DNA from: a virus
Lineage: Duplodnaviria > Heunggongvirae > Uroviricota > Caudoviricetes
DNA: 38,410 nt
Direction: 5' to 3' (one strand)
Virus record (IMG/VR): IMGVR_UViG_3300017691_000005
Span: 94,052 to 132,461 of that record
Within the stretch, counting starts at the first letter, position 1; the number at the start of each line of letters is the position of its first letter. A program made the position numbers and the translations under genes. Shown piece after piece: positions 337-29,927 of this stretch. The notes under the pieces were generated by a model, which did not search any database, was not told the origin of the DNA, and worked only from the letters and a program-made list of their open reading frames with translations.

Positions 337-365
337 AAGATCTTGAAATCTTTTGAGATTTGGGC

Positions 366-394
366 TTGACGCTCCCGCCTGGGGCCTGTAAGTT
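366..394 (+). promoter_or_regulatory. housekeeping sigma70-type promoter
   Basis: TTGACG-17 bp-TAAGTT, upstream of a CAGGAGG RBS and ATG 429. Confidence 0.7.
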
Positions 395-428
395 TTACTC
401 ATACCAACCAGCACAACAGGAGGATCTA

Positions 429-896
429 ATGGTTACGATGCGTGACTACCTTGTTGGCCTCAACCTTGCAAAGCCGGGTCGGGGTAAGTTCAGCGCTGCT
501 GCTCATGAGGCTCTTGCAAAGGCACGGGCTGAGGGTATGATCTTTGATGAGCCGGTCAAGCCGGTCAAGGTTGACAAGCCCAAGACTGTTTCAACTGACG
601 TTGCGGTTGAGGATGTTAAGACTGTTCCTACTCAGACAGTTGCCCTTAAGAATGTTGAGCGTCCTGCTGCTCGCAATTTTGGTGGGATGATGGTTGAGGC
701 GCCGCCTCGCTACATGCACAGTGACTACATTGCTACCGACACTGATGGCTCCAAGATCAAGAAGACGTTTAGGGACATTTGCTGTGGTTGCCAGTACTCG
801 ATTCGCTGGTGCCGTTGCTCCGGTGGGCCGACGATCTTTTCTGTTGCAGACACTGTGACCGTTCTTCGTCTTTCTACGGTCGGCAAGGCTGCTTGA
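429..896 (+). CDS. protein with N-terminal Lsr2-like AT-hook segment and C-terminal Cys cluster
   Basis: MRDYL..LNLAKPGRGKFSAAAHEAL resembles the Lsr2 DNA-binding domain (RGR to RGK). C-terminal CCGC..WCRC. Start reassigned to ATG 429 from the RBS. Confidence 0.55.
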   Translation: MVTMRDYLVGLNLAKPGRGKFSAAAHEALAKARAEGMIFDEPVKPVKVDKPKTVSTDVAVEDVKTVPTQTVALKNVERPAARNFGGMMVEAPPRYMHSDYIATDTDGSKIKKTFRDICCGCQYSIRWCRCSGGPTIFSVADTVTVLRLSTVGKAA

Positions 897-3173: not shown

Positions 3174-3701
3174 ATGGGTGCTAAGGCTGCTGTCATCGTT
3201 ACTCCGACCGACGTTCGCGAGTGGGCCACTAAGAATGGTCACACCGTTTCCAACAGGGGTCGCCTCCACTCCACGATCATTGAGGCTTACAACAAGAGCA
3301 ACAAGGTCAAGTACGACTCCAACATCAAGCCCGACGCTGGTAGCATGGTTGCTCTGAAGGGTAAGCGTAAGACCGAGAGCGGGCGTACCGTCCCGTGGCA
3401 GAAGACGGTTTCTACTACGGAGATTCGTAGGGCTGCTCTTGAGGCCGGTATCCCGCTGGGTTCGCGTGGTCGTATTCACGCTGACGTGCTTCAGGCTTAC
3501 GCGGACAACACTCTGGCTGACCTCGCTGCTAATTGGTCTGACCGTCAGGCTAAGGCTGCTGCTGCCTCTTCTACCAGTTTTCAGATTGTCGCTATGGACT
3601 CTCTGAAGGATGATGAGCAGAGCGTTGAGGTTGAGGATGAGGGCGGGGCCGCTGTTCTTGAGGCTCCGGTCGACGGGGAGCAGACTGAGATCACGGTTTG
3701 A
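3174..3701 (+). CDS. tandem double Lsr2 DNA-binding-domain protein with acidic tail
   Basis: DVREWA..NG..VSNRGRLH..IIEAY and EIR.AA..AGIPLGSRGRIH.DVLQAY; C-terminus DDEQSVEVEDE..VDGEQTEITV. Confidence 0.85.
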   Translation: MGAKAAVIVTPTDVREWATKNGHTVSNRGRLHSTIIEAYNKSNKVKYDSNIKPDAGSMVALKGKRKTESGRTVPWQKTVSTTEIRRAALEAGIPLGSRGRIHADVLQAYADNTLADLAANWSDRQAKAAAASSTSFQIVAMDSLKDDEQSVEVEDEGGAAVLEAPVDGEQTEITV

Positions 3702-25449: not shown

Positions 25450-25486
25450 AAAAAAGCCCGGTCGGCGCTTTCGCGCCGCCGGGTTT
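25450..25486 (-). terminator. intrinsic terminator of the leftward operon
   Basis: On the minus strand: ACCCGGCGGCGC-GAAA-GCGCCGACCGGGC followed by TTTTTT. Confidence 0.85.
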
Positions 25487-25489
25487 GTG

Positions 25490-25645
25490 TTATTTGTTGT
25501 AATATTGGACGATTCTGTTCAAGATTTTTTGACTGTTTGTGCTGATAATACGATTTGATTCTAACTGTGCTAGATCTTGTATGAAACTGTCTAGTTCTTC
25601 TTGGGTGAATGTTAGTGTGTATATGGTTTCTTTGGTAATTTCCAT
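25490..25645 (-). CDS. tandem-array paralogue 1 (51 aa)
   Basis: IYTLTFTQEELDSFIQDL. Confidence 0.7.
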   Translation of the reverse strand: MEITKETIYTLTFTQEELDSFIQDLAQLESNRIISTNSQKILNRIVQYYNK

Positions 25646-25809
25646 TAGACACAAGCCTCTGTGAGTAATGGGATGAACCATTCACAAAAATAGTCAATGT
25701 TGGCAGGTACGTTGTCGTGTTCATAAGCATATGTTAGGGATTCACGAAGAATATTTAGTTCTTCATTGTCTAATTCAAGAGTATGAGTTGTCATTGAGTT
25801 TATTTTCAT
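25645..25809 (-). CDS. tandem-array paralogue 2 (54 aa)
   Basis: THTLELDNEELNILRESL; read manually. Confidence 0.7.
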   Translation of the reverse strand: MKINSMTTHTLELDNEELNILRESLTYAYEHDNVPANIDYFCEWFIPLLTEACV

Positions 25810-25811
25810 CG

Positions 25812-26066
25812 TTACTCCATATAGTCTTCTGCATCATTATAACCGGCGCACTCAACTAAAGCGTTGTTAATGCTATCGGCTTTCTTTGCAACATGTGACT
25901 TAAAAGCATGGTAGACACGACCGTTGGCATGGGACTGATAAGTCACTTTTGCTGACTGGTGTGTAAAGTCTAGAAGAAAGATGAGTAGCGAAATTTCACT
26001 CTCAGCCAGCCTAATGTCATAAGACTTTTCTGTAGGTTCTACCACTTGAAGTAGTTCAGCCATCAA
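25812..26066 (-). CDS. tandem-array paralogue 3 (84 aa)
   Basis: SYDIRLAESEISLLIFLL. Confidence 0.7.
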   Translation of the reverse strand: MMAELLQVVEPTEKSYDIRLAESEISLLIFLLDFTHQSAKVTYQSHANGRVYHAFKSHVAKKADSINNALVECAGYNDAEDYME

Positions 26067-26211
26067 TCTTCCTTAGGTTGGTGAGTTCAAAATATACATT
26101 GCGGGCATGATCGTCTAACACACTACTTTTGTTAAGATAGGAAAATTTTTCTAGAATCATTTCTAGATATACATGAGTTTCTTCTGTCATCTCCCATATA
26201 TATTTACCCAT
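26056..26211 (-). CDS. tandem-array paralogue 4 (51 aa)
   Basis: KYIWEMTEETHVYLEMIL; read manually. Confidence 0.6.
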   Translation of the reverse strand: MGKYIWEMTEETHVYLEMILEKFSYLNKSSVLDDHARNVYFELTNLRKIDG

Positions 26212-26390
26212 TAGAGATCCGAGTCATCAAAAGAATTAAGAATAGCGGCAGCCAAATCTTTCTCCGCCGGGATAAAAGCATTTGCACCATTCAGTGATCT
26301 AACCGCGTTCATGATATCGGAAAGAGTTGTTGCTTCTTCGCTGTTGAATTCAAACCTGTAAATGGGGTTGCTTACTTTTTCGTAATTCAT
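26211..26390 (-). CDS. tandem-array paralogue 5 (59 aa)
   Basis: IYRFEFNSEEATTLSDIMNA; read manually. Confidence 0.7.
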   Translation of the reverse strand: MNYEKVSNPIYRFEFNSEEATTLSDIMNAVRSLNGANAFIPAEKDLAAAILNSFDDSDL

Positions 26391-26397
26391 ACCCGCC

Positions 26398-26553
26398 TCA
26401 CACCGCCCCTAATTTTTCGTACATGTCGCTAAGAATTTGCTCGTAATAGTAAAATTCCGGGTCGGTACTGGCACGGTAAAGAAAACTGCGGAAATCGTCT
26501 GCTTCATTAGCATCTAGTTCAATGACTATTTCACTACGTCGTTTAATCTTCAT
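26398..26553 (-). CDS. tandem-array paralogue 6 (51 aa)
   Basis: EIVIELDANEADDFRSFL; read manually. Confidence 0.7.
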   Translation of the reverse strand: MKIKRRSEIVIELDANEADDFRSFLYRASTDPEFYYYEQILSDMYEKLGAV

Positions 26554-26717
26554 GATACCCCCGAAAATTTGGCTAGAGTGTCGTAGAGTTCTTGGACAAA
26601 ATCGGCATGGTCATAGGTCCGCCGGTCCAACTTAGAGGCTGTAATAAAATCTTGAAGCATCACAGCCTCATCTTTGGTGAGAGTGACTGTCATACGTTCG
26701 TAAGTTTTAGTTTTCAT
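26550..26717 (-). CDS. tandem-array paralogue 7 (55 aa)
   Basis: RMTVTLTKDEAVMLQDFI. Confidence 0.7.
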   Translation of the reverse strand: MKTKTYERMTVTLTKDEAVMLQDFITASKLDRRTYDHADFVQELYDTLAKFSGVS

Positions 26718-26871
26718 TTTCCATCTCCTCAAGAATTTCTGCCGCTAGATATTTTGAACCCCCAAAACCCTCTAAACCCAAAAAAGCATTCATGATGGTA
26801 TATAGGTGTTCGGCCTCTTCTGGATCAAAAGTAAATTCGTAAGTTATGTGCTTAATCTTGTTGGTCTTCAT
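26707..26871 (-). CDS. tandem-array paralogue 8 (54 aa)
   Basis: TYEFTFDPEEAEHLYTIMNA; read manually. Confidence 0.7.
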   Translation of the reverse strand: MKTNKIKHITYEFTFDPEEAEHLYTIMNAFLGLEGFGGSKYLAAEILEEMENEN

Positions 26872-26873
26872 AA

Positions 26874-27026
26874 CTACCTCACAAAGAATACTTGTCGAAG
26901 TTCGGCCATAAGTTCTTTATCTTCAGCGTCTTGATCTGGGTGGATAAGATTCAACAGGCTGTTGATCTTATACATTTCATCTAATGTAAACTCGATGATA
27001 TAAGTTGTTCGGTCTGCTCTTTTCAT
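26874..27026 (-). CDS. tandem-array paralogue 9 (50 aa)
   Basis: TYIIEFTLDEMYKINSLL; read manually. Confidence 0.7.
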   Translation of the reverse strand: MKRADRTTYIIEFTLDEMYKINSLLNLIHPDQDAEDKELMAELRQVFFVR

Positions 27027-27033
27027 AATACCC

Positions 27034-27225
27034 TCACGGCTGATGGTTGATGGTGTACTCAGGTGTTGGCATGGTCACAAGAAAAGTGTATCCCTTTTCA
27101 GACCCGCTCAACACCATGTCCGGTATCAGATGCTCGATAGTAAAAAATCCGTCCGGAGTGCGAATCACAGCGTAGTCATCGGGGTTGCACTGATTAAGCA
27201 GTGCTCTAAGTTCTTTTACTCTCAA
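27034..27225 (-). CDS. hypothetical protein
   Basis: TTG start (MRVKELRALL..PDDYAVI). The upstream part of the track ORF overlaps a separate membrane gene. Confidence 0.55.
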   Translation of the reverse strand: MRVKELRALLNQCNPDDYAVIRTPDGFFTIEHLIPDMVLSGSEKGYTFLVTMPTPEYTINHQP

Positions 27226-27479: not shown

Positions 27480-27758
27480 TCAGTCAATTTGAACCCTTTC
27501 GGAGTTGGCGAGATGGGCATCACGCCTTCTACTTTCAGCATAGCGCCGCCAGTTCTCTTTTTCCTCGATCAAATGCTGCAAAAGGATATAGGACCCTCCT
27601 TTAATATTTGTGACATTGAACTGAGTAGCAGGATAATCCTTCTGTGCTAGATCCCAAGCCTCAATAATCCAGTCATAAGAAGTCTGCAAGTTTTGCTGTG
27701 CCTTGTTCAAGTAATTTTCTATCTGAGCGGCACGATAAGATCCCTGTTCGTCAATCAT
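27480..27758 (-). CDS. hypothetical protein
   Basis: GGAGG RBS. Confidence 0.65.
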   Translation of the reverse strand: MIDEQGSYRAAQIENYLNKAQQNLQTSYDWIIEAWDLAQKDYPATQFNVTNIKGGSYILLQHLIEEKENWRRYAESRRRDAHLANSERVQID

Positions 27759-28030
27759 AGTTCCTCCCAATGTTTTGTCCACTCGGGACTACCATAGCGA
27801 TTTTGTTCAATATTAAACCAGCCAGAAATTAGTCGAACGTAGGTAACACCACCCTGCCGAACAACTGAAGAAATTTTATCTGGCTTGGTCGAACTGATGT
27901 ACTCAAGAAAAGCCTGGTTGATTTCAGGATAGTTATTTCTTAGTGACGTTACTAGTGACACCGGTATATGATGAATATCAAAATCACCGCTCAAATCTTT
28001 ACTCACAAAAATGGGATCATTCTTCATCAA
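27755..28030 (-). CDS. hypothetical protein
   Basis: Coupled ORF. Confidence 0.65.
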   Translation of the reverse strand: MMKNDPIFVSKDLSGDFDIHHIPVSLVTSLRNNYPEINQAFLEYISSTKPDKISSVVRQGGVTYVRLISGWFNIEQNRYGSPEWTKHWEEL

Positions 28031-28869: not shown

Positions 28870-28912
28870 TTATAGAAAGACACTCCTATACGCATAAACG
28901 TATAGGAGTGTC
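28870..28912 (-). terminator. terminator-like 14-bp hairpin
   Basis: GACACTCCTATACG-CATAAA-CGTATAGGAGTGTC; TTTCT follows on the minus strand. Confidence 0.7.
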
Positions 28913-28922
28913 GTATCCAATA

Positions 28923-29336
28923 CTAAAATACCCAGTTTTTATCAGCGTGAAGTGTGCGAATGGTTGAAATCCATTTGCGTGAGACATAATCCGCTTCAGT
29001 AATTGGCTCATCAAAACTTTTACCATCACGGCGCCAACCGTCAGGGTCCATAATGACAATACCCTCTTCAGCAGCCCACTCTACAGGCTTCTTTTTAATC
29101 TTAGTAGGTGTCTTGTCTACCTCTTCATCCAACCACACTACACGAGTCGCGCCGTTGTGTCCATGAATTGCAACAACGTCTTTTATACCGCCCTCATAAA
29201 CTACGGTAGACCTAAACGAACTAAGCCAGCGAAGACTAACCGTTCCATCAGTAAACTCAATACCTTCAACAACAGCGCCGGTACCTGAAATACCGGACAC
29301 ATCAGTATCTCTATGAAGTTCAAACCTCCGTGACAT
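28923..29336 (-). CDS. two-domain hypothetical phage protein
   Basis: RRFELHRDTDVSGISGTG.V.EGIEF.DG.V.LRW..IHGH.G.T.VVW plus a second domain (IMDPDGWRR..DEPITE). Confidence 0.75.
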   Translation of the reverse strand: MSRRFELHRDTDVSGISGTGAVVEGIEFTDGTVSLRWLSSFRSTVVYEGGIKDVVAIHGHNGATRVVWLDEEVDKTPTKIKKKPVEWAAEEGIVIMDPDGWRRDGKSFDEPITEADYVSRKWISTIRTLHADKNWVF

Positions 29337-29634
29337 CATGATCACCCCACTGCTTTACCTCATCATAAGTTTCCTCGAAAATGTCCATATCGCAGGGATA
29401 AAACTCGCCTCTGACACCTTTGATAATATAATCTCCGGGCTTGGCAAGGTGGTCGCCTTCAAGAGTGTGAATAACTAAATAAGAACGAATTTCATAGTAT
29501 TTCAAGTGGTCATTTTTTTTGACTTCTCCGCCGCACCATTCAGCAATATCATAAGCATTATCGCCGTAAGGGTAACTGAGTTGATAAGCCTCAATGACTA
29601 CTGGCTTTTTGCGGTACTTCTTAATTTCGCTCAC
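29320..29634 (-). CDS. widespread phage protein (KYRKKPVVIEA family)
   Basis: KKYRKKPVVIEA..IHTLEGDH.A.PGDYIIKGV.GEFYPC..IFE.TY. Confidence 0.8.
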   Translation of the reverse strand: MSEIKKYRKKPVVIEAYQLSYPYGDNAYDIAEWCGGEVKKNDHLKYYEIRSYLVIHTLEGDHLAKPGDYIIKGVRGEFYPCDMDIFEETYDEVKQWGDHDVTEV

Positions 29635-29927
29635 TCAGCGTCCTCTTCTTCAAGACTTGCTAGATAATCATCCACAACTTGTTCAATATACTGACCATCT
29701 GGGTCATTAAAAGTTGCAAAAGCAATAAGTTCCTCACGCAGCGGAATAACTTCACGCCCCGCTGCTGCATAAAGAGCATCAACAATCTGATAAATTTCTT
29801 CAATATTGACAATCACTCGTACTGAATCTCTAAAATTGACTTTAAGATAAATACTTGCTTCGTCTTCGTTACAAAGACTATTATCAACTTTGAGAATTGA
29901 CTCATCTTCACCTATTAGTTCCAGCAT
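29631..29927 (-). CDS. acidic hypothetical protein
   Basis: AAGGAG RBS. Confidence 0.65.
   Translation of the reverse strand: MLELIGEDESILKVDNSLCNEDEASIYLKVNFRDSVRVIVNIEEIYQIVDALYAAAGREVIPLREELIAFATFNDPDGQYIEQVVDDYLASLEEEDAE

Follow-up and report, generated by a model that had tools for sequence, protein, structure and literature searches.

A tandem family of small acidic proteins in AT-rich actinophages with a possible role in host takeover or counter-defence

In large actinophages the majority of genes are tiny ORFs without known function. One row of such ORFs closes a leftward operon in the stretch of DNA analysed here (the window, 38,410 nucleotides, positions 94,052 to 132,461 of IMG/VR virus record IMGVR_UViG_3300017691_000005), where nine of them, p1 to p9, are tightly packed on the minus strand at 25490-27026. 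Are they genes, do they form one family, and what could such a family do? The phage that carries them is a low-GC actinophage of roughly 132 kb, and the array lies at the distal end of its leftward accessory gene block. The original prediction, made from the letters of the window, had described nine abutting or coupled minus-strand paralogues, the outcome of an old and diversified expansion, which would be either ribbon-helix-helix (RHH) proteins or diversified inhibitors of host proteins. All nine ORFs are present at the predicted coordinates and they are indeed closely coupled, with overlaps of 1-11 nt or gaps of 2-7 nt:

p1, 26874..27026, minus strand: first gene of the array, 50 aa, pI 4.9; Shine-Dalgarno-like site GTGAGGG upstream
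p2, 26707..26871, minus strand: 54 aa, pI 4.5; gap of 2 nt after p1
p3, 26550..26717, minus strand: 55 aa, pI 5.6; shares 11 nt with the end of p2; start refined to ATG 26717 and not TTG 26732, the public gene call giving the same 55-aa product
p4, 26398..26553, minus strand: 51 aa, pI 4.5; overlaps p3 in ATGA
p5, 26211..26390, minus strand: 59 aa, pI 4.1; gap of 7 nt after p4
p6, 26056..26211, minus strand: weakest member, 51 aa, pI 5.1; overlaps p5 in TAATG
p7, 25812..26063, minus strand: long form whose helices are separated by an insertion, 83 aa, pI 5.0; overlaps p6 by 8 nt; start refined to ATG 26063
p8, 25645..25809, minus strand: 54 aa, pI 4.2; gap of 2 nt after p7
p9, 25490..25645, minus strand: last gene of the array, pI 4.8; its start and the p8 stop share 1 nt; start refined to ATG 25645, which gives a 51-aa product
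25450..25483, minus strand: intrinsic terminator of the leftward operon, 7 nt past the p9 stop

The terminator consists of a GC-rich hairpin of 11 bp followed by U6 (-24.6 kcal/mol, z-score -4.1), and none of 200 shuffled sequences folded equally well. An Rfam search of the array region returned nothing. Public gene calls cover all nine products: the first eight are listed in the ENA (133.8 kb) and Logan assemblies of the same phage, and p9 is called solely in the 132,461-bp record. Orthologous pairs shared with a related metagenomic contig, L004, gave pN values of 0.19-0.32 against pS values of 0.66-0.95. These orthologues are thus under purifying selection, which indicates that the ORFs of the array are real genes. 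The orthologue of p2 is 47% identical (pN 0.32 vs pS 0.95), that of p4 64% identical (dN/dS 0.14) and that of p5 about 50% identical (pN 0.30 vs pS 0.78); p7 has the orthologues P0010 (83% identity) and, in L004, P0011 (61% identity), with dN/dS 0.12, and an orthologue of p8 is partly present where the L004 contig ends. We rejected an alternative genetic code as the origin of the short ORFs, since reading through any one stop codon lengthened the frames only at chance level and since the small genes have conserved orthologues.

We then asked whether the nine products are related to each other. A leave-one-orthogroup-out HMM test placed 9 of 11 groups first against a background of about 1,085 ORFs from the phage and its relative (E-values from 2.6e-9 to 8e-3). 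These groups include p1 (E 0.0034), p2 (E 2.4e-5), p3 (E 0.0013), p4, p5 (E 8.9e-4), p8 (E 1.6e-4) and p9 (E 0.0022); p2 and p5 are 36% identical across 58 aa. An HMM built solely from members of the window retrieved family ORFs as its top seven matches in L004, non-orthologous ones among them. The two groups that the test missed are p7 (ranks 6 to 92) and p6 (rank 10 only). Only its match to distant, single-copy relatives links the former to the family (hhalign 83%, E 9e-6, 49 columns). With these relatives p6 has a weak link (hhalign 54%); the pattern YIWEMTEETHVYLEMIL fits, with a threonine at the glutamate column. The claim of nine paralogues is consequently firm for seven only: by their sequences p1-p5, p8 and p9 can firmly be taken as statistically supported paralogues and p7 is a probable member, while p6, which fits by pattern and position only, is unproven. 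It may be that p6, and to a lesser degree p7, is not homologous to the rest. Each motif segment quoted in the original prediction was found again. No DNA-level repeats occur inside the array, so the low nucleotide identity that it reported holds, and an old, diversified tandem expansion is supported for one small-protein family.

The members share a common build. A short and often basic N-terminus (MK...) leads into an alternating hydrophobic, strand-like segment, which is followed by an N-capping box and two amphipathic helices separated by a variable loop. Columns counted on a 36-sequence alignment of the family define the core motif as a strand-like Phi-x-Phi-x-Phi, a capping residue, a near-invariant glutamate (32 of 36), a leucine four residues on (32 of 36) and a hydrophobic pair; the last strand position is leucine, phenylalanine or methionine in all 36 sequences. 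The outward columns of the strand are T14/V4/I4 and T15/E13/D3/R2/K1. Core members are acidic and 50-62 aa long, p7 (83 aa) being the long form of the window; the pI of the nine window proteins ranges from 4.1 to 5.6 and the median pI of each lineage from 4.3 to 5.1. In the AlphaFold2 model of p4 (pLDDT 83) residues 1-14 are extended and residues 15-30 and 32-50 form helices. The model of p7 (pLDDT 70) has an extended segment at 1-20 and helices at 21-44, 46-72 and 78-82. Models and alignment agree with the predicted beta-alpha-alpha order of elements, the glutamate capping box included. The monomer model does not form the N-terminal strand, whose presence is deduced from the alternating residue pattern. 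Fold searches with the p4 model (PDB by Foldseek, 48,161 PDB representatives by VIA-align, and the ESM Atlas) had only generic helical hairpins among the matches listed, the best PDB matches having Z about 5 (at most 5.3) and Foldseek E-values above 3. The predicted fold of the p4 monomer is therefore generic and gives no hint of function. When p4 was modelled as a homodimer on the family alignment, the prediction scored 0.23 against a mark of 0.42, a result that carries no weight either way.

Comparison with L004 also shows how the array changes. Orthologous array proteins of the window and L004 are 40-64% identical, compared with 87-89% for the gene just upstream:

27034..27225, minus strand: conserved 63-aa gene directly upstream of the array

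This neighbour has dN/dS 0.06 relative to its L004 orthologue and no match among cultured phages. Three members, p1, p3 and p6, are without an L004 orthologue (the contig stops before the position of p9), L004 has two family members that are absent from the window, and the slot of p6 is occupied there by a different, clearly supported member of the family. This difference in member sets indicates that copies have been gained and lost. Equivalent arrays are present in cultured phages as well.

These phages belong to Rhodococcus Cluster CB (genus Weaselvirus), where arrays of about 7-9 members, all annotated as 'hypothetical protein', occur in Peregrin (genes 9-16, with gene 18 nearby) and in Weasels2 (gp008-gp017); Grayson, of the same cluster, has at least one orthologue. 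The profile of the window family matches the Weaselvirus profile over its full length (hhalign 95.6%, E 1.2e-8, 50 columns). As in the window, the Cluster CB proteins are small (53-62 aa) and acidic, and their genes follow one another with overlaps on the minus strand and take up the distal end of a leftward block. The phages, of about 133 kb and 41% GC (PMC13313380), are of a type related to the window phage. Judged by these profiles, the Peregrin, Weasels2 and window arrays belong to the same protein family. The recognition of the Cluster CB arrays as equivalents of the window array is a new result; the paper that describes these phages (PMC13313380) mentions neither paralogues nor tandem arrays. 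There is however no one-to-one orthology between Cluster CB and window members, and identity across the lineages is at most about 33%. Even between Peregrin and Weasels2 the array proteins are only 22-42% identical. Taken together, these sequence comparisons indicate that the family evolves fast, under purifying selection and with changing copy number. Rhodococcus phage records also appear among the portal-protein matches. In a BFVD fold search three named Weasels2 proteins stood within the top 41 matches, with weak E-values.

Beyond these two lineages, a search of 1.84 billion proteins identified five small single-copy relatives (E 2e-6 to 6e-4). Single-copy relatives have replication genes as neighbours in Streptomyces phage Success and in a T7-like element; a T7-like element that carries a family member lies on a contig from an Alphaproteobacteria MAG. 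A word-indexed search of 5.8 billion proteins found only the phage itself, L004, two homologues of p7 and the relatives already found. Beyond noise, tblastn of family members against cultured phages retrieved Cluster CB phages only. The family profile did not match four Streptomyces Stanwilliamsviridae phages or Streptomyces phage Success, the p7 alignment scanned over viral contigs found none, and the DNA of the array region had no match among 50,697 phage records. Nothing significant was obtained for any window member against PHROGs, Pfam or NCBIfam, no PHROGs family was assigned to ten Weaselvirus members, and the family profile gave chance-level matches only against PDB sequences. DUF7706 and DUF3417, suggested by language-model searches of the Atlas (scores 0.79-0.84), were left unsupported. 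A PF24806 scan of the window phage, Peregrin and Weasels2 was empty.

What could such an array do? We tentatively propose, at a confidence that stays somewhat short of even, that it encodes a tandem family of small (50-83 aa) acidic protein-binding modules for host takeover or counter-defence, a role that we infer from the features described above. One polycistronic message would encode all members, which would bind proteins and not DNA; the copies would differ in the host or host-defence target, or target variant, to which they are tuned, and the array would thereby contribute to host takeover or counter-defence. The acidity seen in every lineage and the outward threonine, glutamate and aspartate residues of the strand point to protein binding over DNA binding. 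From the sequences, diversified inhibitors of host proteins, the second option of the original prediction, would be the most plausible reading. Lytic phages have clusters of small early host-takeover or counter-defence genes, among them the SPO1 host-takeover module and the T7 class I genes. Like these clusters, the array block holds many very small, tightly packed and fast-evolving genes, together with a counter-defence gene; unlike them, since those modules are mostly made of unrelated genes, it contains about 7-9 consecutive paralogues of one family.

The counter-defence gene lies in the same leftward block:

28923..29345, minus strand: Acb5-family gene (anti-CBASS cGAMP nuclease), 1.9 kb upstream of the array

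Its presence is in line with a counter-defence role. The Acb5 assignment is one precomputed Pfam match (PF26761), made for the identical gene of L002 and L003, and the argument from neighbourhood would depend on this single annotation. A terminator-like hairpin at 28879-28912, between this gene and the array, may separate the two transcripts. The Acb5 family, including its anti-defence gene neighbourhoods, has been described (bioRxiv 10.1101/2025.07.12.664507).

Acidic helical hairpins could equally bind phage proteins. The array products would then be phage-internal adaptors or chaperones, which bind proteins or nucleic-acid-binding factors of the phage itself and regulate or escort them. We consider this explanation rather unlikely, yet the strongest of the alternatives. 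The evidence from structure and charge is the same as for host targets, and the single-copy relatives found amid replication genes, in the T7-like element and in phage Success, fit it. However, fast divergence, gain and loss of members and about 7-9 diverged copies would be more characteristic of genes with variable targets outside the phage than of partners of conserved proteins within it.

The other option of the original prediction was that the members are RHH-type regulators, in which the strands of two subunits pair into a DNA-reading ribbon, so that different homo- and heterodimers would read different operators. Proteins of this class such as Arc and CopG consist of a short strand, a helix, a turn and a helix, and the order and approximate lengths of the elements in the window family (strand of about 7 residues, helix of about 15, short turn, helix of about 18) resemble those of RHH proteins (Arc, Mnt, CopG, MetJ). 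The [TSDN]-x-x-E capping box that follows the strand is shared, and several members have a basic N-terminal tail. None of the nine matched an RHH family of Pfam at E<=1, the whole phage gave no match at E<=10 in HMM scans with PF01402 (RHH_1) and PF03869 (Arc), for which the controls were positive, and no RHH protein was returned by the profile search of PDB sequences. Among the 35 Foldseek-PDB and 50 VIA-align matches listed for the p4 model there was no RHH chain, though an obligate dimer modelled as a monomer may not lend itself to such a comparison. Moreover, every window member is acidic, the outward positions of the strand, which would have to read DNA, carry threonine, glutamate or aspartate and not basic or amide residues (glutamate in 13 of 36 at one position), and the conserved G-x-S/T turn that precedes helix 2 in RHH proteins is missing, a loop of variable length taking its place. 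A DNA-binding RHH fold is thus unsupported, and we regard it as improbable.

An equally improbable proposal is that the strand and helix 1 of the family mimic the third strand and the helix of the Lsr2 N-terminal domain and so cap or poison oligomers of this host xenogeneic silencer, which should target such unusually AT-rich phages in GC-rich hosts. The arrays do occur in the lowest-GC actinophages (41% GC compared with 62% for the host; PMC13313380). The Lsr2-like proteins of the window that were examined match or contain solely the DNA-binding part of Lsr2, and other actinophages encode small stand-alone proteins of the Lsr2 dimerisation domain (PF11774), similar in their small size to family members. 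The likeness to this domain is local, a strand and a helix of 25-28 residues (T-Y-E-I-D-L-x-x-x-N/E-A-x-x-L-R-x-x-L): the N-domain of a verified phage Lsr2 aligns, through KTYEIDLSTANADKLRDLL, over 25-28 columns with the strand and helix 1 of the window-lineage profile (single-sequence hhalign 46-48%, score about 21), while none of 240 background segments exceeded 14.8. With a profile of eight Lsr2 sequences, however, the probability drops to about 20% over 23-28 columns. A distant relative, P0024, has a sub-threshold Pfam match to the dimerisation domain (E 0.026), but at 14.6 bits against a curated cut-off of 29.6, and none of the nine window proteins matches; PF11774 scans of the window phage and Peregrin were empty. 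The N-terminal beta-hairpin of Lsr2 is missing in the family, in which about 5-12 residues precede the strand in most members (13 in p7), and the second helix of the family is lacking in the Lsr2 N-domain. In addition, one family member comes from a MAG contig of Alphaproteobacteria, a group in which Lsr2 is not known to occur, and the lead was picked after the fact out of many weak matches. Still less probable is the extension of this proposal to the very AT-rich large actinophages, that is the window phage and Rhodococcus Cluster CB, in which the arrays would be batteries of decoys for the Lsr2 oligomerisation interface that dismantle host silencing together with the DNA-binding-only Lsr2-like proteins, the copies tracking paralogues or variants of host Lsr2.

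The combination of purifying selection, fast divergence and change in copy number is a hallmark of genes that engage variable partners. About 25 'orphan' genes of two phage lineages, together with five single-copy relatives, are brought into one undescribed family with a clear signature. Equivalent arrays are carried by lytic Rhodococcus phages that are in culture and have a tractable host, which makes the function directly testable. If the members do inhibit host factors or defences, new small protein inhibitors for Actinobacteria could be drawn from the family.

The viral record that contains the window spans 132,461 bp, of which the window is the final 38.4 kb, and the same phage is also present in two further public assemblies. 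All nine minus-strand ORFs that the original prediction had described at 25490-27026 were found there (p1 first, p9 last), and a public protein collection holds gene calls for nine of nine products. Three starts were refined and a terminator was located:

26717, minus strand: refined ATG start of p3
26063, minus strand: refined ATG start of p7
25645, minus strand: refined ATG start of p9 (51 aa), sharing one base with the p8 stop
7 nt past the p9 stop, minus strand: intrinsic terminator, 11-bp GC-rich hairpin followed by U6 (-24.6 kcal/mol, z -4.1)

According to coordinates and upstream sequences, the junctions are either 1-11-nt overlaps or 2-7-nt gaps, and Shine-Dalgarno-like GAGG or GGAG motifs lie within the codons preceding the genes, a layout typical of a translationally coupled operon. 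The strong terminator right after p9 indicates that the array truly ends the leftward transcription unit, as had been claimed. This terminator faces a rightward block (14.5-25.4 kb). No DNA-level repeats were found within the array and an Rfam search of the region gave no match.

The sole obvious pairwise similarity was that of p2 and p5 (36% over 58 aa), that of p3 and p4 being suggestive. An HMM built from an alignment of the nine window proteins alone returned as its top seven matches seven ORFs of L004, a related metagenomic contig (Ga0182212_1000183), two of which have no window orthologue. In a leave-one-out test, each orthologous group was withheld, alignment and HMM were remade from the rest, and the withheld proteins were ranked within a background of about 1,085 ORFs. 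First rank went to nine of 11 groups (E 2.6e-9 to 8e-3), including p1, p2, p3, p4, p5, p8 and p9, while p6 and p7 were not recovered first. Significant profile similarity thus holds the predicted set of nine paralogues together firmly for seven members. p7 is a probable eighth: an hhalign match of 83% (E 9e-6, 49 columns) to distant single-copy relatives is its sole tie to the family, and its AlphaFold model has the family's element order (pLDDT 70). p6 (hhalign only 54%, Thr at a near-invariant Glu column) would belong by pattern and position, without statistical support, and is considered unproven. A 96-98-aa protein (window 29631-29927, minus strand; L004 4551-4841) was repeatedly the top background match of the family HMM (E 0.02-0.8) and may carry the module in a strongly diverged form.

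The family signature, drawn from 36 sequences, begins with M-K and a short stretch in which polar or basic residues prevail. This leads into the strand-like segment T-Y-x-[ILFV]-x-[LFM], a capping position occupied by [TDSN] and two variable, mostly acidic residues. Then come a near-invariant Glu (32/36 sequences), a Leu four residues further (likewise 32/36), a hydrophobic pair, a variable-length loop often containing D, P or G, and a second amphipathic helix. The AlphaFold2 model of p4, computed with the family alignment as input, has an extended segment (1-14) followed by two helices (15-30 and 32-50; pLDDT 83), in line with the predicted order of elements. Each of the nine window proteins is acidic, with a pI of 4.1-5.6, and the median pI is 4.3-5.1 in each lineage of the family.

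No member matched Pfam, PHROGs or NCBIfam. When 1.84 billion representative proteins were searched with the profile, five more small proteins with the same signature emerged (E 2e-6 to 6e-4) besides those of L004 and of the phage itself; the five were single-copy wherever their context was readable. One of these, flanked by the primase-helicase and DNA polymerase genes, belongs to a T7-like element in a 1.08-Mb Alphaproteobacteria MAG contig (JAWSVM010000001.1 226004-236180, loci L008 and L020); the element also has RNA polymerase and head-tail connector genes. It may be integrated or pseudolysogenic; otherwise it is a binning or assembly chimera. Weak tblastn matches led to equivalent tandem arrays near the left genome end of Rhodococcus Cluster CB phages (genus Weaselvirus):

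Peregrin, minus strand: array of genes 9-16, with gene 18 nearby
Weasels2, minus strand: array gp008-gp017

Grayson has at least one orthologue. Aligning the window-lineage profile with the Weaselvirus profile by hhalign gave 95.6% (E 1.2e-8) over the full length, and a structure search of viral models placed three named Weasels2 proteins among the best 41 matches, with weak E-values. The portal protein of the window phage is 53% identical to those of ~130-kb Streptomyces phages (Stanwilliamsviridae), its matches including Rhodococcus phage records; no family member was detectable in four Stanwilliamsviridae genomes. Cluster CB phages have the lowest GC among known actinophages (41% vs 62% for the host), and their 55 left-end genes are transcribed leftward, with abundant small ORFs without known function; their description makes no mention of paralogues or tandem arrays (PMC13313380). 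The left terminal repeat of Peregrin (2,937 bp) holds genes 1-8 (PMC13313380), and the array starts immediately inside it (Peregrin locus L011, 3001-3162 and left end); a position beside the repeat boundary may be conserved between Peregrin and the window. Longer relatives of 91-102 aa were also seen: Peregrin gp15 (L011 1872-2147), Weasels2 gp013 (L019 4272-4565) and gp254 (L012 2941-3243), and Streptomyces phage Success gp32 (L013 1932-2240). In these the module is extended either at the N-terminus, by a segment containing Cys, or at the C-terminus, by one with a G-x-P-x-x-S-R-R-H motif; gp254 and gp32 lie outside arrays and adjoin RtcB or replication genes.

L004 is syntenic with the window over the entire leftward block and stops inside the p8 orthologue, so that the array was compared up to p8. 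For p2, p4, p5 and p7, non-synonymous differences from the L004 orthologues were 0.19-0.32 per site and synonymous ones 0.66-0.95, near saturation, with dN/dS = 0.12-0.14 for the pairs with computable dS. Purifying selection clearly acts on these protein sequences. Array orthologues are 40-64% identical, compared to 87-89% for the gene directly upstream of the array; p1, p3 and p6 have no orthologue in L004, where a different member occupies the p6 slot and an extra one lies 0.5 kb upstream. Peregrin and Weasels2 array proteins share 22-42% identity, and between Peregrin and its close relative Grayson, one orthologous pair that was compared has only 63% identity. Together, these comparisons show a family under purifying selection yet fast-diverging, with copy-number turnover; the old, diversified expansion originally proposed is supported. 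Between two conserved genes (window 27541-27782, L004 6302-7187) the small genes differ, L004 carrying the extra member and the window an unrelated ORF of at most 100 aa; the site looks like a local gene-replacement hot spot.

The array proteins are most plausibly protein-binding modulators that would act on host factors or defences, with the paralogues perhaps adjusted to separate targets or to variants of a target; diversified inhibitors, as previously suggested, would be plausible. This reading draws on their being small, acidic, helical, fast-evolving and copy-variable, and on an Acb5-family anti-CBASS nuclease gene in the same gene block. Just downstream of that gene, a terminator-like 15-bp perfect hairpin followed by TTTCT (28879-28912, minus strand) may split the leftward block into two transcripts, either by terminating transcription internally or as a processing site; the Acb5 argument therefore holds for the gene block and not for one proven transcript. 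Possibly, the proteins instead serve the phage's own proteins as adaptors. The originally proposed DNA binding by a ribbon-helix-helix (RHH) mechanism is unlikely: the order of secondary-structure elements fits and nothing else does, since no RHH profile matches, no RHH chain was among the matches listed in PDB sequence and fold searches, the proteins are acidic, the alternate strand positions that face DNA in an RHH ribbon are Thr, Glu or Asp, and helix 2 is not preceded by a conserved turn.

A weak and speculative lead is a resemblance to the Lsr2 dimerisation domain; the reading built on it is unlikely. The idea is attractive because these phages exceed other actinophages in AT content and have GC-rich hosts, because the checked Lsr2-like proteins of the window (360-896 and 3174-3701; RGR and GRGK motifs) match or contain no part of Lsr2 other than the DNA-binding one, and because there are other actinophages whose Lsr2 proteins are made up of just the dimerisation domain. 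One distant relative matches the Pfam domain below threshold, and the verified Lsr2 N-domain of Success gp71 aligned with the family strand and first helix at 46-48% probability, scoring above all 240 background segments. However, the probability dropped to about 20% with an eight-sequence Lsr2 profile, direct HMM scans were empty and the family has one member from outside Actinobacteria. A PF11774 scan of the whole window phage found no Lsr2 dimerisation domain. Microbacterium phage PoRanda gp20 (L025 61-270), Efeko gp21 (L029 61-267) and Streptomyces phage Legacy gp47 (L024 37-255), of 68-72 aa and annotated 'Lsr2-like DNA bridging protein', consist of this domain and a short basic tail without the DNA-binding domain, and may be dominant-negative or capping forms.

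The small-protein family encoded by the array is previously undescribed, and the arrays present in cultured phages make it open to experiment.
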